A model generated the notes under the pieces. That model was not told where the DNA came from. It searched no databases and saw nothing but the letters and a program-made list of their open reading frames with translations. A DNA stretch of 64,000 bases from assembly GCA_947259735.1 (NCBI GenBank), contig CAMYNN010000006.1:4998-68997 (forward strand), given 5' to 3'. The stretch comes from Thermodesulfovibrionia bacterium. GTDB lineage: Bacteria; Nitrospirota; Thermodesulfovibrionia; UBA6902. Of the stretch, positions 652 through 62,953 are shown in pieces (within the stretch, counting starts at the first letter, position 1; each line of letters begins with the position of its first letter). The translations under genes and the position numbers were made by a program.

Positions 652-2088
652 TTAAATTCCCACAATATCCGGAAAAGCCTTTTTAATGGCGGAAATAAGA
701 TTGATGTCCAGGAGTCCGTCTTTTTCCTCTTCCAGGATTTCCTTGACCATACTGTTTGCCCTGCTCATCATGCTGGGCCTTCCCTCTTTTTCCCAGACAT
801 CGAAGATGCTCCGCACCGACAGTTCAGGATAAAAGAACTCTTCCATCATGTGGTCAACGGTATGTTCTTCCATTATATAGTTGCCGCCGGGCCCGACTTT
901 TTCGATTACGTCAAGTCCTATGGTATCATCGTCTACCTTTATCCCCGCAAGCAGCCTTCGGATCATGCCAATGATCTCATTGTCAATGACATACTGCTCA
1001 TAGGATATTGAGTTCCCTGAATCAAGCATGCCTGCCGCAAGGTGAATTAAATCAGCACCGGCCATGGCCGTCATCAGGCTTGAAAAAGTTTTTTCAGTAC
1101 CTGCCTGGATATCAGGCCTCTTTGCCTCGGTGACACCCCCGGAACCGTAGATGGGTAATTTGTAGAGCTTTGCGAGCTGAACCGCGGCCGCATTCATCAG
1201 CGCCATCTCCACAGAACCTATGGTAAATTCAACTTTCCTTAAATCCATGACTGTCGGCACAGCCCCGTAGAGCACCTTTGCCCCCGGAGCAAACACCTGG
1301 GCTATAGCCACACCCGCAAGCGACTCGGCATGCATCTGAGTAAGAGTGCCTGCAAGGGTAGCAGGTGCTGTAGCACCGGCAATCGGCGCAGGAGCGCAGG
1401 TAACCGGTATTCCATTGGTACAGCAAAAATGAAGGATACTAAGTGTTTTATTCTCTATAGTCAACGGACTTATGGCGTTTGTAATAACCGACACAAATGG
1501 CTTTTCTCTAAGGTTGTCCTTACCACCCGCAATAATGCATGCGAGCTGCCACATCTGCTTTGCGCCGTCTATGTTTTCACACCCTCCCATAACGTGTTTA
1601 TAGGTATGATTGAGTGCATGGTAGAAATCATTCAGATGATAGTGCTCCGGCCCGACATCATGGGCCTGGCATGCGACGATATAGAATTGAATATATTTCA
1701 GTTTGTCCACCAGTTTAGCAGTGTGAACAATGTCCCTGAGCATAGTGGGCCTGTAGCCTCTAGTACCCATATCGAGTATCTGAAACACCCTGCCGCCGTT
1801 GGCAAAATTTACTTTTCCTTCTCCGAGGTGAATATCATTGTTCCCGTCCCTCGAGTAAAGGACAAATCCCGATGGTGCATGGCCGAGTTTTTCATCCAGC
1901 CACTCACCATCAAATCGGACTATCTCTTTTTCAGCATCCACATGGGCCCCGGCATCTTTAAGCATATCAAGCACATCAGCATCGTGGATCCTGATCCCGA
2001 TCTTATTTAATATGTGCCGTCCGGCCTGATCAATCTTTTTCAGGTCATCAGTACCAAGTGGTGCAAAAAACGGTAAACTAAATCCCAT
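652..2088 (-). CDS. MttB-superfamily methyltransferase, non-pyrrolysine type (quaternary amine:corrinoid methyltransferase, MtgB-like)
   Basis: 478-aa uninterrupted ORF whose overall sequence resembles the trimethylamine methyltransferase MttB family (e.g. ...GGNYIMEEHTVDHM...). No in-frame TAG. Clustered with a corrinoid protein and a pterin-binding methyltransferase. Confidence 0.85.
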   Translation of the reverse strand: MGFSLPFFAPLGTDDLKKIDQAGRHILNKIGIRIHDADVLDMLKDAGAHVDAEKEIVRFDGEWLDEKLGHAPSGFVLYSRDGNNDIHLGEGKVNFANGGRVFQILDMGTRGYRPTMLRDIVHTAKLVDKLKYIQFYIVACQAHDVGPEHYHLNDFYHALNHTYKHVMGGCENIDGAKQMWQLACIIAGGKDNLREKPFVSVITNAISPLTIENKTLSILHFCCTNGIPVTCAPAPIAGATAPATLAGTLTQMHAESLAGVAIAQVFAPGAKVLYGAVPTVMDLRKVEFTIGSVEMALMNAAAVQLAKLYKLPIYGSGGVTEAKRPDIQAGTEKTFSSLMTAMAGADLIHLAAGMLDSGNSISYEQYVIDNEIIGMIRRLLAGIKVDDDTIGLDVIEKVGPGGNYIMEEHTVDHMMEEFFYPELSVRSIFDVWEKEGRPSMMSRANSMVKEILEEEKDGLLDINLISAIKKAFPDIVGI

Positions 2089-2100
2089 AATATGCCTTTG

Positions 2101-2270
2101 AAATTACGAATTATTAATTACGAATTACGAGTGATTAATAATTTGCAATTATCTTTTCGCAATTCGTAATTAGTTGTTTGTCATTTGCCCCAGTCCCCGC
2201 GACTTAGATTCACGGCGTGAATCTGTGGGGATCTCAATTCGTAATTTGTCATTTGTAATTCGTAATTATC
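2101..2270. repeat. Composite inverted-repeat element built from AATTACGAATT / AATTCGTAATT units with a central GC hairpin
   Basis: aattacgaatta occurs at about 2102 and 2116. The complementary aattcgtaatt occurs at about 2161, 2236 and 2257. The central hairpin is agattcacg/cgtgaatct (2206-2224), flanked by cccc/gggg. The right end overlaps the last codons (..IITNYK) of the 2249-3700 gene. Confidence 0.75.
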
Positions 2271-3700
2271 TGTTCTATTTCTTTAAGTACCTCATCCGAT
2301 TTCACTTCAACCTCATGTTCTGCAAGAATCCTCTTTGCCTCAGCATTGCACCGTTTGTACATGTCCATGGAGCCTGCGCTTTCCCAGGCATCATAACGGG
2401 AACGGTCGATCAGGCTGGGCAGGAAATTTGCCGTCTCATAATTTTCAAATGTGTGGTCTTCTGTAAGAAAGATAGAGCCCGGTCCGCCGGTCCCCACCTT
2501 TTCTATTACCTTGAGCGCAAGGGTATTTTCATCTACAGGTATGCCGCCTGTAAAAAAGCGGCTCATGGCTATAAGTTCGTTGGCCATTGTCACCATTTCG
2601 AGCGAAGAGGTTGTACCGAACTCTATATAACCCACATCATGGATAAGGTTAGCGCGGGAGAGCATTGATGTTGTGATAGAGAACATGGACTCAGCGCCTG
2701 CCTGGGCATCCATGACCTTTGCATCCGATGCACCTGCATATGCCCATATAGGCAGCCCGTAAAGTTCATCTCTCATATCAGCAAGCGCAGCCTGGGTAAG
2801 GCTCCATTCAGGGCAGCCGTAAGAAACAACTGTGGACTTCATATCAAGGGCGCTTACGTTCGGGCCGAAGAGGAACGGTGATCCTTTTCCAGCAAGCTGA
2901 TGTACGACAAGACCGACAAGGTTTTCAGCAATCCCCATGGCCATGGCGCCTGCAAGTGTGACCGGGGCCCCGCCTCCGGCATTTGAGCCTGAAGGGAAAC
3001 ACATGGGTATCTTCTTTTGAGCGCAGAAGATGAGTCTGTCGAGAACGTTTTCCGGAAACCTGAGAGGGCTGATGGCTTCTGAATAATTTAAAAGGAATGG
3101 CTTTAACTGCAGCTGCTCTTCACCTCCTGCAATCGCACAGGCGATCTCATAAATCTTTGCTATGTCCTTACCGCTGTCTGCAATAAATACTAGTGGCTTA
3201 TTTGTATTTTTGATCATTTCGCCGAATGCATGAATATATACGGCCTCCACCGGGACATCATCGGGGTTGGACATTGACATTGCAAAAGAGATATTTTCCA
3301 GACCATCCACAAGTTTTGCAAAATTGGCCACATCCTTAAGGAGGGTCCTCCGGCGTTCGCCTGTTTCAATATCTATTGTATAGACTGTGTCCGAGCCCGT
3401 ACCGTAGAATGGATTATTATTGAAAAGCGGCATCGCCTTGTTCCCCTTCTGGTCGTAAAGGCTGATCTGACGCGGAGCTGTCTTAAGCGCTGCCTCGGCA
3501 AGATAGGCCGGCATCCTTACCCAGTCTCCGTTGAAAACCGTGCATCCCGCTGCTGCAAGCATATCACGGGCACCGGCATGTTCCATCTTGAACCCTGTTT
3601 TTTCGATTATCTCCAGAGCTGCATTATGTATGGCAAGGACCTGTTCGCGGTTTAGTACCTTAAGGCGGGGTTGAAATGTGGGGATATCAGGTAATCTCAT
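2249..3700 (-). CDS. Second MttB-superfamily methyltransferase paralog, non-pyrrolysine type
   Basis: 483-aa uninterrupted ORF that aligns by eye with the neighbouring MttB-like protein (..FLTEDHTFENY.., ..GGAPVTLAGA..). Confidence 0.85.
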   Translation of the reverse strand: MRLPDIPTFQPRLKVLNREQVLAIHNAALEIIEKTGFKMEHAGARDMLAAAGCTVFNGDWVRMPAYLAEAALKTAPRQISLYDQKGNKAMPLFNNNPFYGTGSDTVYTIDIETGERRRTLLKDVANFAKLVDGLENISFAMSMSNPDDVPVEAVYIHAFGEMIKNTNKPLVFIADSGKDIAKIYEIACAIAGGEEQLQLKPFLLNYSEAISPLRFPENVLDRLIFCAQKKIPMCFPSGSNAGGGAPVTLAGAMAMGIAENLVGLVVHQLAGKGSPFLFGPNVSALDMKSTVVSYGCPEWSLTQAALADMRDELYGLPIWAYAGASDAKVMDAQAGAESMFSITTSMLSRANLIHDVGYIEFGTTSSLEMVTMANELIAMSRFFTGGIPVDENTLALKVIEKVGTGGPGSIFLTEDHTFENYETANFLPSLIDRSRYDAWESAGSMDMYKRCNAEAKRILAEHEVEVKSDEVLKEIEQIITNYK

Positions 3701-5218: not shown

Positions 5219-5589
5219 GGTTGCTCCTTTCCTATATATATTTTCGACTTAAATCATTAATAACTAAAGTTTTTCAATTAAATTATTGTTCTTGATTTCA
5301 TGTTAACAGGTATATGTAATGTTGTCGAATCGAAGGAACTTATCCAATGAAAGAACCTCTTGAACAATTCAAACGGTTGGAACAGTTTGTATGCAAAAAC
5401 AATAAAGCGCTTATCCTGTTAAAGGTATATTTATTTTGTGTACTAACGTATTTTTTCAGATAGCTGGCAATGATAAAATTTATAAATATAAATAAATCTT
5501 ATCCCCCGGATGTGCCTGCAGTAAATGATTTGTCTTTGGACATACGCGGAGGGTCTCGATGCTTGCAGGAAGCTCCCGTAAGCTGTTAA

Positions 5590-5760
5590 CGTTTATTCCG
5601 CTTAAAAGTAGAGCCTGTTTATGCTGAGAGCTACAGGACTGTTGACGAGGCCAGTGCAAGCATTTTTGAATACATTGAGTTATTCTACAACCAGGTTCGC
5701 AGGCATTCAGCAATTGGTTATCTCAGCCCCAACGATTATGAACAACAATTTATACATTCA
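5590..5760 (+). pseudogene. IS3-family transposase remnant (C-terminal about 55 aa of the integrase core only)
   Basis: One frame reads RLFRLKVEPVYAESYRTVDEASASIFEYIELFYNQVRRHSAIGYLSPNDYEQQF, matching the conserved C-terminus of IS3 OrfB transposases. An in-frame stop lies immediately upstream (5587-5589). There is no N-terminal part and no inverted repeats were found. Confidence 0.6.
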
Positions 5761-5819
5761 CTGTGTCCACTTTTTGTGGGTAAGACCAGTTTTAGAGACA
5801 AAAGATCAATATTTATAGA

Positions 5820-30312: not shown

Positions 30313-30328
30313 GGAACAATTCAAGAAA

Positions 30329-30368
30329 CAAAAAAAAGGAGCGTTGCCAGGCAACGCTCCTTTTTTTT
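30329..30368. terminator. Strong bidirectional Rho-independent terminator
   Basis: An A9 run, then ggagcgttg-ccagg-caacgctcc, then a T8 run. Confidence 0.8.
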
Positions 30369-30424
30369 GTTTCTCCATACTTACTTTATTAAGCACGTCA
30401 ACGGGTTATAATAAAATATTAAAA

Positions 30425-48113: not shown

Positions 48114-48140
48114 TCGACATAAGAGAGCATTTTTTTAAAA

Positions 48141-48171
48141 GAGACCTGGAATTTTCAGGTCTCTTTTTTTT
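48141..48171 (+). terminator. Rho-independent terminator
   Basis: gagacctg-gaatttt-caggtctc followed by a T8 run. Confidence 0.8.
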
Positions 48172-53007: not shown

Positions 53008-55638
53008 ATGGAAAGTAAAAAGATACGACAGTTATTCCTCGATTTCTTTAAGGAGAAGGGGCACGAGATCCTCCCAAGCTCAAACCTTTTACCCAAAGAT
53101 GATCCGACACTTCTGTTTACCAATGCAGGCATGGTTCAGTTTAAATCCATTTTCCTCGGTGAGGAGGACAGTCCGCAGAAGAGGGCTGTCACTGTCCAGA
53201 AATGTCTCAGGGCAGGCGGGAAACACAATGATCTTGAAAATGTGGGCAGGACTGCACGGCACCACACTTTTTTTGAGATGCTCGGAAACTTTTCCTTCGG
53301 AGATTATTTCAAAAAAGAAGCAACCGAGTGGGCCTGGGAATTTCTTACCGAACGGGTAAAGCTTCCTGCTGATAAACTTTTAATTACAGTCTATGAAAAA
53401 GATGATGAGGCAGCTGAAATATGGGAAAAACATGTCGGTATTTCTCCGGAAAAGATATTCAGACTCGGTGAGAAAGACAATTTCTGGCAGATGGGTGATA
53501 CCGGGCCATGCGGGCCATGCTCGGAGATACATATAGATCAGGGACCTGAGGCGGGCTGCGGGAAGCCGGACTGTCAGGTAGGATGTGACTGCGACCGGTA
53601 CCTTGAGATATGGAATCTTGTGTTCATGCAGTACAACAGGGATTCAGCGGGTGAGCTGACTCCGCTGCCGAAGCCGAGCATTGACACCGGAATGGGGCTT
53701 GAAAGGCTCTCTGCTGTGCTCCAGGGCAAAATGAATAATTTTGATACCGATCTGTTTACGCCGATATTTAAATATGTAGAAGACATTTCGGGAAAGAAAT
53801 ACGGATCCAATCCAGAGGTAGATATCTCCATGCGCGTTATCGCTGACCATATCAGGACAGCAGCATTTGTTTTGTCCGAAGGCCTGACTCCATCCAATGA
53901 GGGCAGGGGATATGTCTTGAGGAGGATCATCAGGAGGGCTGCCCGGCACGGCTTCATGCTTGGCATAAAGAAACCATTTCTTTACGAAGTGCTTGATCCT
54001 GTGTATGACATGATGTCAGGCCCCTATCCTGAACTGATCGAAGATACAGAAAACAGCCGGAAAATACTTCGGTTAGAAGAAGAAAGGTTTGCCCACACCC
54101 TTACATCGGGTATGGCTATACTGGATGAGCTTGTGGATAAAATAAAATCTTTGGGGAAAGATACTATCCCCGGTTCTGAACTCTTTAAATTATATGATAC
54201 CTATGGCTTTCCCCTGGACCTTGCCCAGGATATTGCGGAAGACAGCAGCCTGAAAGTGGACCATAGGGGATTCAATGAGGAGATGGAACTTCAGAAGTCA
54301 CGGGCGAGGGCTTCCTGGGTGGGGGCAGAGGCAGAAATTCCTGAAGTATACAGGAAGGTGAAAGAGATGTTCCCCCCAACAGAATTTCTCGGGTATGAAA
54401 CGATGCAGGCAGACTGTATGGTGAACGGGTTGATAAAAGATGGTTCACTTGTTGAAGAAGTGACTGAGGGAGAAGAAGTGGAAATTGTTCTCGACCGGAG
54501 CCCTTTCTATGGTGAGTCGGGCGGGCAGGTCGGCGATGCGGGAGTTATGAAATCGGGCGGCCTTCGGGTTGAAGTACAGAATTCAAAAAAAATGAATGAC
54601 ATACTGATCCACGCCGGTATTGTTAAAAAAGGTGTTCTCAGAAGAGGTATTGCTGTTCATGTCTCTGTAGAAGAGGAAAGACGGCAGTCCATTATGCGGA
54701 ACCACACGGCGACACACCTTCTTCACGCAGCATTAAAAGCAGTTCTCGGAGATCATATTAAGCAGGCCGGCTCACTCGTTGCTGAAGACAGGCTCAGGTT
54801 TGACTTCACTCATTTCTTTGCGATGGATGAGCGGGAGATAAAGGAAGTCGAAGATATTGTGAACAGGAACATAATCGATAATGTGCCGGTTCAGGTGTCG
54901 GAAACGTCTCTTGACGAGGCAATTAACAGTGGAGTGACAGCGCTTTTTGGGGAGAAATATGGCCACGAAGTAAGAGTTGTACGGGCCGGTGAATTCTCTG
55001 CAGAACTCTGCGGCGGTACTCACTGTCATGCGACAGGAGATATCGGACCCTTCCGGATAATATCGGAAAGCAGTGCGGCGTCGGGTATCAGGCGCATCGA
55101 GGCACTTACCGGTTTTGCTTCTCTTGATTTTAACAGGAAGAGGGAGTCGGAACTGAAGAAAACGGCCGGGCTTCTCAAGGTGGCTGAATTAAAGGTTCTG
55201 GATAAAGTGTCAAAAATTATTGGTGACGTGAAAGAGCAGGAAAAGGAACTGAACAAGTTTAAGCAGAAGAGGGTCGCCGGAAACATTGATGATATCCTGA
55301 AGAGTACTGTGGAAATAGATACAGTAAATGTGCTTGCCCATAAAATTGACGGCCTGGACATGAAATCATTAAGGGACCTTGTTGACAAACTGAAGGACAG
55401 GATCGGTTCCGGTGTTATAGTCCTCGGTTCTGTACTCGACGGGCAGGCCTACTATGTCTCTTCAGTAACAAAGGACAATATTCCCCGCTTTCATGCAGGA
55501 GACCTGTTGAAGAAGGTTACCGGCGGAAAAGGAGGAGGCAGGCCGGACATGGCCCAGGGCGGAACGAAGGACATTGCGGGAATGGAGGAGGCACTGTCTT
55601 CATTGTCTGATATAATTAAAAATATAGATGAGAGTTAA
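53008..55638 (+). CDS. alaS: Alanine--tRNA ligase
   Basis: 876 aa with FTNAGM, the editing-domain HTATHLLH motif and a C-terminal DHHA1 domain. Confidence 0.98.
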   Translation: MESKKIRQLFLDFFKEKGHEILPSSNLLPKDDPTLLFTNAGMVQFKSIFLGEEDSPQKRAVTVQKCLRAGGKHNDLENVGRTARHHTFFEMLGNFSFGDYFKKEATEWAWEFLTERVKLPADKLLITVYEKDDEAAEIWEKHVGISPEKIFRLGEKDNFWQMGDTGPCGPCSEIHIDQGPEAGCGKPDCQVGCDCDRYLEIWNLVFMQYNRDSAGELTPLPKPSIDTGMGLERLSAVLQGKMNNFDTDLFTPIFKYVEDISGKKYGSNPEVDISMRVIADHIRTAAFVLSEGLTPSNEGRGYVLRRIIRRAARHGFMLGIKKPFLYEVLDPVYDMMSGPYPELIEDTENSRKILRLEEERFAHTLTSGMAILDELVDKIKSLGKDTIPGSELFKLYDTYGFPLDLAQDIAEDSSLKVDHRGFNEEMELQKSRARASWVGAEAEIPEVYRKVKEMFPPTEFLGYETMQADCMVNGLIKDGSLVEEVTEGEEVEIVLDRSPFYGESGGQVGDAGVMKSGGLRVEVQNSKKMNDILIHAGIVKKGVLRRGIAVHVSVEEERRQSIMRNHTATHLLHAALKAVLGDHIKQAGSLVAEDRLRFDFTHFFAMDEREIKEVEDIVNRNIIDNVPVQVSETSLDEAINSGVTALFGEKYGHEVRVVRAGEFSAELCGGTHCHATGDIGPFRIISESSAASGIRRIEALTGFASLDFNRKRESELKKTAGLLKVAELKVLDKVSKIIGDVKEQEKELNKFKQKRVAGNIDDILKSTVEIDTVNVLAHKIDGLDMKSLRDLVDKLKDRIGSGVIVLGSVLDGQAYYVSSVTKDNIPRFHAGDLLKKVTGGKGGGRPDMAQGGTKDIAGMEEALSSLSDIIKNIDES

Positions 55639-55716
55639 AAGTTAAGAGTGAAAAGTTGAAAGTGATAGTTTTGATTTCTTTTTCCCTTTAACTCTTAACT
55701 CTTAATTTTTAACTCC
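55639..55716. repeat. Low-complexity inverted repeat (GTTAAGAGT/GAAAGT units versus ACTCTTAAC units)
   Basis: aaaagttaagagtgaaaagttgaaagtg is roughly complementary to ctttaactcttaactcttaattttt. It starts directly after the alaS stop. Confidence 0.65.
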
Positions 55717-57871: not shown

Positions 57872-58309
57872 ATGACACTGGATGAACTGAAGCAATACTG
57901 TGACGGAGAATTTCAAAACATCGACAAAGTAGTGAATGAACTGAATGTGCTTTATAGTAAGGAAAAACAGGTATATACCATAGCCGAACAGGCTTCTTTA
58001 GCTACCTTTATGATGAACGCATACAGCGGAATGGAAAACGTCCTGAAACAAATGCTCCTCTATGACAAGCTGGATATTGAAGATTCTCCGGGATGGCATG
58101 AAAAGGTGCTGAAAAAATCGGGAGAGATTGGAATTCTTCCGCCGGAACTGTTTCACCTCTTGTCCAAGTACCTGTCATTCAGAAACTACTTTATTTATTC
58201 ATACGTCTTTACCATTCAGTGGGATGATATGAAGCCCCTGGTAGAGGGGATGAAAGATGTTGTTGCACAGGTCAAGACTGAAGTTAATGAGTATTTTCAG
58301 ACAATTTGA
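57872..58309 (+). CDS. Hypothetical four-helix protein, possibly a degenerate HepT-like (DUF86-related) protein
   Basis: ..YSGMENVLKQML.. and ..YLSFRNYFIYSY.. resemble the HepT-like RxxxxHxY region, but with Tyr in place of His. Confidence 0.4.
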   Translation: MTLDELKQYCDGEFQNIDKVVNELNVLYSKEKQVYTIAEQASLATFMMNAYSGMENVLKQMLLYDKLDIEDSPGWHEKVLKKSGEIGILPPELFHLLSKYLSFRNYFIYSYVFTIQWDDMKPLVEGMKDVVAQVKTEVNEYFQTI

Positions 58310-58899
58310 AGAAAACTATGCCTGGAACTGACACTGAAAACATAATTATTATTGATGATATTGAGGTGGACATAGCATCTCTGTATTCGATCAAACACCG
58401 GTGCGTTCCCGGTAAATGCAGTAAGAATAAGTGCTGCTGTTCAAAATATGATATCTGCATTGATGAGGTGGAGATGAAGCGGATAGTCGGTTATCTGCCG
58501 GAAGCCGTGAAGTTTGTACCTCATCTTGATGACGGGTCGGGATTTGAGAACATCTTCGAAGAAGAGGAGCCGGGTTTATTCATCATAGATGCAGAGGAAG
58601 ATGGCCTGTGCCTCTTCGCTTACCCAGATGAGGAGGAAAAAATATTCTGTTCCCTCCACTCAACGGCACTGGAACTGCAGCTTCATCCGCACAAAGTAAA
58701 GCCCCGTTCATGCATTACCTGGCCCTTAGCTGTCACAGACGATGCGCCTATGCAGCTTTCTATAGCTGAGGATGCTTTCAGCTTTCCCTGTAATATCCGC
58801 AGGGAAAAGAGTTTATCACTGGATCCGGATATTGCACAGATTGTTAAAGATGTATTTGGTGAGCAGTTTTTGATGAAGCTTGAAAAATCCGACCGGTAA
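58306..58899 (+). CDS. Cys-rich DUF3109-like protein
   Basis: CVPGKCSKNKCCCS..., GLCLF, FCSLH and KPRSCITWPL are consistent with my recollection of DUF3109. 4-nt overlap with the upstream gene. Confidence 0.5.
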   Translation: MKKTMPGTDTENIIIIDDIEVDIASLYSIKHRCVPGKCSKNKCCCSKYDICIDEVEMKRIVGYLPEAVKFVPHLDDGSGFENIFEEEEPGLFIIDAEEDGLCLFAYPDEEEKIFCSLHSTALELQLHPHKVKPRSCITWPLAVTDDAPMQLSIAEDAFSFPCNIRREKSLSLDPDIAQIVKDVFGEQFLMKLEKSDR

Positions 58900-58931
58900 G
58901 ATATTCCAGCTATTCCAGGAAGTGCAATGAG

Positions 58932-59099
58932 AAAAAAGCAGGTATTGCTCAATCAGATAATTAACTCGATAAATTACAGAAATATTATTTGTATGGCTTT
59001 GAATAATAATGTGCGCGCTCAGATTGGTTCATACTGCGTCTAAGGTACCTGCCGGCAGGCAGGTCGAAAATTATCTACTTTCACAATACCTGCTTTTTT
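58932..59099. repeat. 168-bp element bounded by a perfect 16-bp inverted repeat (AAAAAAGCAGGTATTG ... CAATACCTGCTTTTTT)
   Basis: The arms are at 58932-58947 and 59084-59099. A second paired segment gataatt/aattatc lies 8 nt further in on each side. The internal hairpin is acctgcc-ggca-ggcaggt. Confidence 0.6.
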
Positions 59100-59130
59100 C
59101 GGGTTGTTGAAAGAGATCTTCTTCGGAAAC

Positions 59131-60360
59131 TTAAAGCCTGAATATTTCCGGCTTGATCCATAAAATCAGTATTGTTCCAATGAGACAGAAACTCGAGCTT
59201 GTCAGAAGAGCATTCTGAGTTCCAATATAGTGTGCCAGCGTCCCGACAGTGAAATTCCCGAGTGGCGCCATGCCGAGAAACATTGTGGTGAAAAACCCCA
59301 TGACTCTTCCCCTCAGTTCATCAGGGACGGAAAGTTGAATTAAATTATTTGCAGTGACAATCTGATTTAACGCCCCCACTCCTGCGAGAAAGAGCATCCC
59401 GTAGGAGAGCCATACGATTTTTGAAATTGAAAACGCCAGGAGGGCCGTTGAAAATACCAGTCCTCCCCATGCCATTACAATCCCCTTTCTCGATACATTG
59501 CCTTTGAGCGCAAGCCCTACAGCTCCTGTAAATGCACCGGCCCCCGCGCACCCCATTAATATGCCGAGGCCAGTGGCCCCTGTTTTCAGAATATCACGGG
59601 CATAGACGGGAAGAAATGATATATAGGGAAAGCCAAAAAAACTCATGATGCCGACCAGTATGAGGAGGGTAGAGACGGTAGGGTCTGCCCTGACATAGCG
59701 GATACCCTCTCTGAATGATTTCCTGATTCCTGATTTTGGCGATGAATCTTCAATGTTCTTTATGCGCATTCTGAGAAGTGCCGCAATTATGGCGACAAAG
59801 CTCAAAGTGTTTAAGAAGAAGCAGGTCGCCAGCCCGACGGAGCCCATGAGAAATCCTGCAATTGCCGGCCCGAGCATCCGTGCGCTATGAAATACGATAG
59901 AATTGAGAGCAATGCCGTTGAGCAGGTCTTCTTTTCCGACCAGTTCAATGATAAAAGACTGCCGGGTCGGTATTTCTATGGCATGCACCGTTCCGATACA
60001 GAATGCGAGAATAAGCACATGCCAGACAGTGACGACTCCTGTTGCCACCAAAAGGGCGAGTATCAGGGCGAGAAACATTAAGATAATATGGGCATTCAGA
60101 ATAATTTTTCTTTTGGGAAACCTGTCAGCCATAACTCCACCGGCCATGGTGAACATGAGAATGGGCGCTGATGCTGCCGTGCCGGCAAGGCCAAGGAAAA
60201 AGGGCGATCCCGTCAGTTCGTACACGAGCCAGCCCTGGGCGGCCTGATGCATCCAGGTCCCGGTCAGTGATATGAGCTGGCCGAACCAGAATAACCTGAA
60301 ATTCCTGTGCCTGAGAGCTGTAAAGGGCTTATATAAATTCATAGATAGTAATGATACCAT
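59131..60360 (-). CDS. MFS transporter
   Basis: 409 aa with about 12 predicted TM helices and an MFS N-terminus (FRLFWFGQLISLTGTWM). Confidence 0.85.
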   Translation of the reverse strand: MVSLLSMNLYKPFTALRHRNFRLFWFGQLISLTGTWMHQAAQGWLVYELTGSPFFLGLAGTAASAPILMFTMAGGVMADRFPKRKIILNAHIILMFLALILALLVATGVVTVWHVLILAFCIGTVHAIEIPTRQSFIIELVGKEDLLNGIALNSIVFHSARMLGPAIAGFLMGSVGLATCFFLNTLSFVAIIAALLRMRIKNIEDSSPKSGIRKSFREGIRYVRADPTVSTLLILVGIMSFFGFPYISFLPVYARDILKTGATGLGILMGCAGAGAFTGAVGLALKGNVSRKGIVMAWGGLVFSTALLAFSISKIVWLSYGMLFLAGVGALNQIVTANNLIQLSVPDELRGRVMGFFTTMFLGMAPLGNFTVGTLAHYIGTQNALLTSSSFCLIGTILILWIKPEIFRL

Positions 60361-62154: not shown

Positions 62155-62953
62155 CGAATTTTTATCCTATCCCTTTATGCAGAGAGCATTGCTGGCTTCA
62201 GTGATGGTGGGCGTTTTATGTCCTTTTGTCGGTAATTTTGTGGTACTGCGAAGGATGTCCTTTTTTTCTGATGCCATATCCCATTCAGCCTTTGCAGGTA
62301 TTGCTGTCGGTGCGCTGCTCGGAGTCGATCTTTCAATTTCATCTTTAGCGGTAGCCCTTATCATCGCACTGGTGATTGCATTTCTCTCTGAGAAGACAAC
62401 ATTGTCGCATGACACAGTCATTGGTGTCGCTTTTTCCGGTGCTATTGCGGTGGGGATGCTTATTATGGGCATGCTGAAAGGATACAGGGCAGATCTGTTT
62501 ACTTTTCTCTTTGGCGACATCCTTGCAATAACCAACAGTGACCTTTTGATGATTCTTTCTGTTTCCATTCTGACCATTGTGACATTCCTGGCATTATTGA
62601 AACCCTTTCTCCAGATAACCTTCAACAGGGACCTTGCGCAGGTAGAGGGGATTCATGTCCGTTTCTTTGAATACCTGCTTTTTATAATGATTGCAATTGT
62701 AATCACTGTGAGCCTGAAAATTATCGGCATTATTCTCGTTACATCCCTCATGATAGTCCCTGCTGCATCTGCCAAGAACCTTGCGTCCAGCATGCTGCGG
62801 CTGTTTGTTTTATCAAGCCTTTTTGGTGTAGTGTCGGGGATCGCCGGCCTTTTCGTCTCCATTTATCTTGATACATCATCAGGCCCTACCATTGTTCTTG
62901 TGAGTGTAGGGATATTTTTTCTGACTATGCTGAAGCGGACAGGAACGAAATGA
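62141..62953 (+). CDS. Metal ABC transporter permease (ZnuB-like)
   Basis: 270 aa, polytopic, with the typical FMQRALLA N-terminus. Confidence 0.85.
   Translation: MTMISEFLSYPFMQRALLASVMVGVLCPFVGNFVVLRRMSFFSDAISHSAFAGIAVGALLGVDLSISSLAVALIIALVIAFLSEKTTLSHDTVIGVAFSGAIAVGMLIMGMLKGYRADLFTFLFGDILAITNSDLLMILSVSILTIVTFLALLKPFLQITFNRDLAQVEGIHVRFFEYLLFIMIAIVITVSLKIIGIILVTSLMIVPAASAKNLASSMLRLFVLSSLFGVVSGIAGLFVSIYLDTSSGPTIVLVSVGIFFLTMLKRTGTK

Follow-up and report, generated by a model that had tools for sequence, protein, structure and literature searches.

The intergenic region at 58900-59130 of the window (the whole 64-kb stretch of DNA analysed here) harbours one copy of a long-hairpin intergenic repeat family, which is previously undescribed and belongs to a family-level clade of the Nitrospirota. 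Copies were 150-185 bp long across loci, and their variation is best explained by selection that keeps an extended, imperfect hairpin of ~35 bp and not the sequence of its arms. With a probability of roughly 55%, we read the window copy as a hairpin repeat of the MITE, ERIC or YPAL kind that has been co-opted as a bidirectional terminator of the two genes facing each other at this site. The window copy (W) was compared with copies at loci L040 and L061, with which it constitutes type A, and with those at loci L026 and L027, which constitute type B.

W sits in the middle of its 231-nt intergenic region, which is convergent because the DUF3109 gene lies on the plus strand and the MFS_3 transporter gene on the minus strand; from the element it is 31 nt to the stop codon of DUF3109 and 30 nt to that of the MFS gene. 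A first-pass annotation of this DNA had described an element of 168 bp with perfect 16-bp terminal inverted repeats, and AAAAAAGCAGGTATTG (58932-58947) and CAATACCTGCTTTTTT (59084-59099) were indeed perfect complements. The closing stem (stem 1) is 17 bp long, not 16, because G58931 and C59100 also pair. Its left arm GAAAAAAGCAGGTATTG (58931-58947) includes a run of six A and its right arm CAATACCTGCTTTTTTC (59084-59100) a run of six T, with 136 nt in between. Next comes an 8x8 internal loop, composed of CTCAATCA (58948-58955) on the left side and TACTTTCA (59076-59083, unpaired in the fold) on the right side; L040 is partly paired here (CCGGATAATT/AATTATCCGG). Past these 8-nt unpaired stretches, the pairing of GATAATT (58956-58962) with AATTATC (59069-59075), likewise recorded in the annotation, was recovered as stem 2, in which L040 and L061 displayed compensatory A-U to G-C and U-A changes. 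Stem 3 consists of TCGA at 58966-58969, inside the conserved block TTAACTCGATAAATT (58961-58975), and TCGA at 59064-59067; both halves were invariant in the five copies.

The interior of W comprises an AT-rich core (58970-59047), of which the blocks GCTTTGAATAA (58996-59006) and TGCGTCTAAGGTA (59035-59047) were conserved in the three type-A copies, followed by a 16-nt insertion, CCTGCCGGCAGGCAGG (59048-59063), found in W and absent from L040, L061, L026 and L027. This insertion gives rise to the inner hairpin ACCTGCC-GGCA-GGCAGGT (59047-59064), which the annotation had pointed out and which is therefore a private acquisition of W, not a family feature. An inverted-repeat search on W delimited arms of 32 nt, 84% complementary and separated by 106 nt; those of the other copies were 31-36 nt long and 84-89% complementary. 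The element is probably longer than the 168 bp first described and extends ~8 nt past each arm (~58923-59106).

The feature in W is real and non-random. The long-range stem, whose folding the annotation had proposed to check, was favoured in both the MFE and the centroid structures of both strands, with folding energies of -55.4 and -55.8 kcal/mol and z values of -4.9 (plus strand) and -7.3 (minus strand). Of 200 block shuffles of the window, only one produced, within 300 nt, a perfect inverted repeat of 17 bp or longer.

The upstream convergent gene (58318-58899, plus strand) belongs to the DUF3109/Rv0495c family; its product is 100% identical to protein P0001, which carries a precomputed Pfam assignment to PF11307. 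The convergent MFS_3 transporter gene occupies 59131-60360 on the minus strand. The assignment to PF11307 (Rv0495c/DUF3109) is the precomputed entry for the 193-aa protein with an ATG start, and when the ORF was taken from a TTG start (197 aa, 58306-58899), a Pfam scan returned no family at E values up to 0.001. In this longer version, the DUF3109 gene (58306-58899) runs over the stop codon of the preceding HepT-like_2 gene (57872-58309), for which no MNT-type partner was visible. Relatives displayed an SH3-like gene of 343-345 aa between DUF3109 and the element (L027:4456-5487, L026:4495-5532). The genome of W lacks it, 31 nt being left at that place (58900-58930), which points to a possible deletion or rearrangement directly beside W.

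A second assembly of the window species, GCA_945786855.1 (L025), carried an identical element; the two assemblies were 99.9% identical over 8.6 kb and none of their seven SNPs fell within the element. The copy at L040 (389-541) was 77% identical to W and located between two genes that are likewise convergent, tag and one for a small membrane protein. The one at L061 (10156-10306) was met in the set of tag loci, in reverse orientation and between RND-adaptor and ABC ATPase genes of one operon. A link between the element and tag was considered and dropped, five other tag loci (among L061-L065, L071 and L072) having no element beside tag. The two type-B loci, a JGI metagenome contig (L027) and a Nitrospiraceae MAG (L026), are syntenic with the window over AlaS-phasin-UbiB-HepT-like-DUF3109, with DUF3109 proteins 67-69% identical, and there the SH3-like gene is followed by the inverted repeat. 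The L026 copy (5605-5778) lies downstream of the syntenic gene block and the L027 copy (5569-5743) 8 nt from the stop of a convergent MFS gene. A perfect 19-bp palindrome (AGGTAAAACTCGCCGTGGC / GCCACGGCGAGTTTTACCT) was also noted downstream of the former (L026:6040-6079), in a stretch of ~980 nt without called gene.

Type-A copies had a mean column identity of 78% and common core blocks TTAACTCGATRRATT, GCTTTGAATAA and TGCGTYTAAGGWATCGAAAA. Type-B copies displayed the same arm layout and the TCGA/TCGA stem, with little of the type-A core, and were only 56% identical to each other in spite of their synteny. The non-orthologous type-A copies shared pairwise identities of 64-77%, against 40-44% between W and the syntenic copies of L026 and L027. 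Copies from non-orthologous loci are therefore closer to W than syntenic ones, so that the history of the element is not simply that of the locus. Short ORFs differed in frame and length among W, L040 and L061, and the idea of a conserved small ORF was discarded.

Within the 64-kb window, W had no further copy according to blastn-short, a mismatch-tolerant pattern search, an inverted-repeat scan, nhmmer and a covariance model (CM). The only other hit, a 14-nt match at 62670-62683, fell in the coding region of a zinc-transporter permease gene and was taken as chance. The annotation had named a single copy with neither expression nor conservation as grounds against its proposal; W is single in the window, but homologues were found in relatives. 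Whole-element matches by nhmmer and CM were L040:383-548 (E 1e-40), L061:10148-10314 (E 2e-30), and L026:5599-5784 and L027:5563-5749 (E 1e-24), the nhmmer profile that scores the copies between E 1e-40 and 1e-24 having been built from the five copies themselves. Over ~640 kb of DNA this five-copy profile disclosed no sixth copy, nor did 265 kb contain another one according to a covariance model built from the three closest copies. Exact scans, for which the query was one arm plus the second stem, gave 30 matches in JGI metagenomes, of which one (L040) was a true homologue. The 24 single-arm matches in a one-genome-per-species collection (the window's genome not included) came from unrelated taxa, had no partner arm in the locus and were attributed to chance; viral contigs, plasmids and phages scanned with the arm pattern yielded nothing. 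Since the profile and CM searches gave nothing more, the family is real but sparse in the DNA sampled, and copy number per genome may be low. A full-text literature search on MITEs in Nitrospirae returned nothing.

The hairpin was maintained by compensatory change. The five copies were aligned as arms-only constructs, with a GCAA loop in place of the core and without the private insertion. Among the 35 pairs of this alignment, 19 had changed on both sides, and 94.3% of the cells were paired; pairwise, copies differed by 8-14 fully compensated pairs. None of 500 shuffles reached any of these measures and sliding the partners left 40-50% of the cells paired, controls which are indicative rather than strict because the constructs are artificial and the structure was derived from them. 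RNAalifold, applied to the type-A copies on the window-minus strand, likewise gave 35 pairs, with ten double compensatory changes and two broken cells (-42.9 kcal/mol). It predicted no conserved structure inside the core.

The two strands did not behave alike. The plus strand of the type-A alignment reached -27.7 kcal/mol, and is weaker because its A.C mismatches correspond to G.U pairs on the minus strand; the opposite strand of the five-copy alignment had 86.9% of its cells paired. G.U wobbles occupied 15 cells on the window-minus strand and two on the other, representing ~10-11 versus two independent events, and a binomial estimate based on these ~12 events gave p ~0.02-0.04. Four of the five copies agreed in this respect, the bias being reversed in L027. 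Such a bias suggests that selection acts on a single-stranded form (RNA or ssDNA), and a functional RNA would fit it equally well. It could also come from a mutational bias or from selection against termination in L061, where the hairpin is weaker on the sense strand of the operon (-33 versus -42 kcal/mol) and where strong termination on that strand would be harmful.

The arms of type-A copies were bordered by short asymmetric motifs: TGCAWTKAG flanked one arm, YRGGTTR the opposite one. In W these were TGCAATGAG (58923-58931), with TGCAATTAG in L040 and TGCATTGAG in L061, where they stand on the other side with respect to the interior, and CGGGTTG (59100-59106), with CGGGTTA in L040 and TAGGTTA in L061. 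In the latter two copies, YRGGTTR read as its reverse complement supplied or overlapped the TAA stop of the neighbouring gene. With respect to its flanks, the interior of W was inverted in comparison with L040 and L061. The left flank of W matched those of L040 and L061 at eight of nine positions when flipped, versus one to three of nine in the arrangement consistent with the interior; on the right, only L040 was better on flipping (6/9 versus 4/9). The internal-loop portions of the arms are inverted too. The breakpoints are therefore located within the two perfect arms of 17 bp, where recombination between inverted repeats, or template switching between them, would be expected to place them. 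The flanks could instead represent a preferred target, in which the element was inserted in either orientation. No target-site duplication or TA termini were seen at the boundaries of W, L040 and L061, whose exact positions are not certain, as the element may include the conserved flank motifs.

Presence of the element varied between relatives, as L061 has orthologues without it. With spacers measured from the adaptor stop to the ABC start, the adaptor-ABC locus of L061 (reference for adaptor identity) displayed a spacer of 199 nt containing the element; that of L073 (adaptor 85% identical) was reduced to 6 nt and those of L074-L083 (adaptor 81% identical) were 84 nt long and identical in the ten contigs, in both cases without element. 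Gain or loss of copies at different gene ends in different lineages is the best explanation. In the spacer of L074 (6471-6554, the same in L075-L083), a stretch of ~30 nt (AACTTACAATAAT...CATTGAG) resembled the flank and arm start of the L061 copy, and a small GC hairpin (GGCAGGCGTGCTTGCC) was present as well. This spacer may be the remnant of an old copy, a reading that is not relied on here because its parts are inconsistent in orientation.

The first-pass suggestion of a MITE-like element is partly supported by copies at non-orthologous loci and by a locus that is filled or empty depending on the lineage; as in members of that class, the element is non-coding, below ~200-300 bp and bounded by inverted repeats. 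Other observations speak against a typical MITE: target-site duplications were not found, the 64-kb window contained one copy only, and outer arm sequence was less conserved than arm pairing. Outer arms more variable than their pairing are the reverse of what is usual for TIRs recognised by a transposase. Occupation of three distinct loci was apparent only when different organisms were compared. No transposase gene adjoined any copy in the called-gene tables of the neighbourhoods, and no partner insertion sequence was identified. Mobility by transposition is, like terminator activity, our inference.

As for transcript ends, the annotation had likened the outer stem to a bidirectional terminator, and the closing stem with its A6/T6 runs was in fact the sole terminator-like signal between the two genes: a pattern scan of 58500-59500 for conventional terminators (loops of 3-8 nt) returned no site. 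Terminator predictors with short loop limits thus miss the only candidate between these genes. W offers a stem and a U-tract on both strands at convergent 3' ends, although the 136 nt between its perfect arms are atypical for a terminator, in which the loop is compact. On the plus strand, GCAGG...CCTGC is directly followed by T6, and the minus strand is the mirror image. Because the interior is a rod (stems 2 and 3), the 3' half would be able to zip progressively. On either transcript the rod would close from the inside out, stem 3 being succeeded by stem 2 and then by the 17-bp closing stem, which would join just as the U-tract emerges. A GC-containing base (GCAGG/CCUGC) with U6 behind it would then act as an intrinsic terminator and a hairpin protecting the 3' end, for the MFS gene as well as for the DUF3109 operon. 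The context of the other copies is consistent with such a terminator: those in convergent settings kept U-runs of four to six, and the one inside the operon (L061) displayed interrupted U-runs and mismatches on the sense strand. Elsewhere in the window, compact palindromic terminators made of A-run, stem and T-run were observed between co-directional genes at 30324-30374 and 48137-48167, one being a perfect 25-bp palindrome with A8/T8 and the other a 14-15-bp stem; the closing stem of W is built on the same plan.

Several aspects of these data could be accommodated by a novel structured ncRNA of ~170 nt, either from a gene of its own or derived from a 3'-UTR, transcribed from the window-minus strand (the MFS direction), with a helix kept by covariation and a functional core such as a protein-binding or base-pairing site. 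The better consensus energy, denser pairing and excess of G.U cells on that strand agree with it, as do the single-sequence MFE of L040, L061 and L026, which also favoured the window-minus strand, the U-run after the helix on this strand in W, L040, L026 and L027, and the core blocks common to W, L040 and L061. These core blocks lose weight in that the core was conserved neither between types A and B nor between L026 and L027 and contained no conserved structure according to RNAalifold; the strand bias rests on few events, is reversed in L027 and has other possible causes. The strand equivalent to window-minus is antisense to the operon in L061, a transcription unit that is fixed would hardly be expected to have an inverted interior such as that of W, upstream sequences displayed no conserved promoter, and no copy had an Rfam match in support at E values up to 10. 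We regard such an RNA, the main rival of the repeat reading, as possible though unlikely. Distinctly unlikely, in our view, is its mobile version, a new ssNA structure of the Nitrospirota of ~170 nt with the ~35-bp covarying helix selected on one strand and a core flipping between the repeats. If it were true, a flip of the core would change which neighbour's transcript receives the stable hairpin or terminator. A related proposal takes the repeats for recombination sites of an inverton-like switch, in which the ~136-bp interior would flip and thereby change the strand with the better hairpin or with an internal promoter-like site. It would account for the inverted interior of W with its breakpoints inside the 17-bp arms, and a weak sigma-70-like match exists on the plus strand (TTAACT-16-TATTAT, 58961-58988), but the two orientations were observed only between different loci and organisms and not within one population. 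W and L025 have the same orientation without a SNP in the element, and four samples of the L027 organism likewise agree; no recombinase gene was found among the neighbours, and a single ancient recombination or template switch between the repeats suffices. Promoter-like matches were at chance level (three found versus 1.5 expected) and not conserved between copies, so an internal promoter was rejected, and we hold a switch of this kind to be extremely improbable.

A locus-specific, vertically inherited bidirectional terminator that acquired a long insert, neither mobile nor part of a family beyond this locus, would explain why W is centred between the convergent stops with A6 and T6 flanking its 17-bp stem. 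Such descent would also fit the equivalent repeat found in L027 next to the MFS gene and in L026 behind the shared upstream gene, as well as the flank motif on the MFS side, which is orthologous (AAAGAGATCT in W, AAAGATCT in L027). It is hard to reconcile with full-length homologues at the unrelated loci L040 and L061, nearer to W than L026 and L027, with a copy inside the L061 operon and close orthologous loci devoid of it, or with outer flank motifs that travel with the element. Strict vertical descent is already contradicted by the non-orthologous copies, and we consider it very unlikely and largely refuted.

Known structured RNAs were not recognised in the element. Rfam 15 gave no match at gathering threshold at the site of W, and the best E values (0.5-5, in W, L040, L026 and L061) belonged to unrelated eukaryotic snoRNA and miRNA models. 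No credible tRNA or tmRNA match was obtained. A 6S-like RNA was rejected, as it had no Rfam hit and the core was not a paired rod with a central bubble. Elsewhere in the window, the Rfam model PYLIS_3 (pyrrolysine insertion element of mttB) matched 1035-1134 on the minus strand with 39.3 bits, the gathering threshold being 38. This match lies inside an uninterrupted MttB-like ORF of 478 aa (652-2088, minus strand) without in-frame stop, which has a 483-aa paralogue at 2249-3700, and it is probably coding similarity in non-Pyl genes of the MttB family, not a working PYLIS. The window also contains intergenic arrays of tandem units at 556-647, 2101-2268 and 55626-55715 (for example GGCACAAAG/GGCACAGAG, AATTACGA and GTTAAAAGTTAAGAG), whose halves are mutual inverted repeats with arms of 29-37 nt, 73-86% complementary, and whose sequence is unrelated to that of the hairpin element.

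In well-studied bacteria, small hairpin repeats of the Correia, ERIC and REP kinds influence where transcripts end and how stable mRNAs are. Nitrospirota are known almost only from metagenome-assembled genomes, and to our knowledge nothing comparable has been catalogued for this phylum. The copies of the present family can be aligned and document compensatory evolution with unusual clarity, both sides having changed in 19 of 35 pairs. Because it combines a filled and empty locus, a strand bias in wobbles, an inversion of the core and compensation, it offers a usable test case for RNA-level function versus selfish DNA. The kind of element is familiar, the family itself undescribed.

Small bacterial repeats of 100-200 bp form long stem-loops by pairing of their 5' and 3' ends and affect the fate of mRNA (PMC2229807), and MITE-like repeats are typically AT-rich, non-coding and located at gene ends (PMC2229807, PMC3184786, PMC10969869). 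Correia elements (CREE, NEMIS) of Neisseria, in which an inverted repeat surrounds a conserved core (PMC2649163), resemble the present family in their size of 100-155 bp, terminal repeats, core, intergenic location, hairpin transcripts influencing neighbours, and filled and empty sites (PMC2649163, PMC2229807). CREE are marked by TA target duplications and termini, hundreds of copies per genome and promoter-forming ends; no duplication was found here, and copy number appears to be low. CREE have an IHF site, whereas only a relaxed IHF-like match was found here, in W alone, and was dismissed; their arms are fixed, whereas those of the present family co-vary.

Parallels are also found in ERIC/IRU of enterobacteria (127 bp) and in YPAL/RU-2 of Yersinia (168 bp), which are likewise imperfect palindromes of transcribed intergenic regions, occur across species at non-orthologous loci, acquire size variants by internal insertions and exert orientation-dependent effects on mRNA. 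YPAL moreover has repeats internal to its termini, no TA ends and insertions beside dyad symmetry (PMC2229807), in agreement with the asymmetric flanks and terminator-like sites observed here. Sequence similarity to ERIC or YPAL is absent, the present family belongs to another phylum (Nitrospirota), and the 3-26-bp duplications of YPAL have no counterpart at our copies. We know of neither ERIC nor YPAL elements with a core inverted relative to the ends.

Integron attC sites are imperfect inverted repeats of 57-141 bp downstream of ORFs, more conserved in structure than in sequence, of which one strand is active in folded form. The conserved bases of the present family are internal, not terminal; the R''/R' consensus (RYYYAAC ... 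GTTRRRY) was absent at the ends of W, L040 and L061, neither integrase nor cassette array was nearby, and attC sites were accordingly set aside. With bidirectional intrinsic terminators, finally, the element shares a stem that has a GC-containing base, is framed by an A-run and a T-run and lies between convergent genes; it differs from them in that its loop is a structured rod of 136 nt and in that it is also found at other loci, including the inside of an operon.
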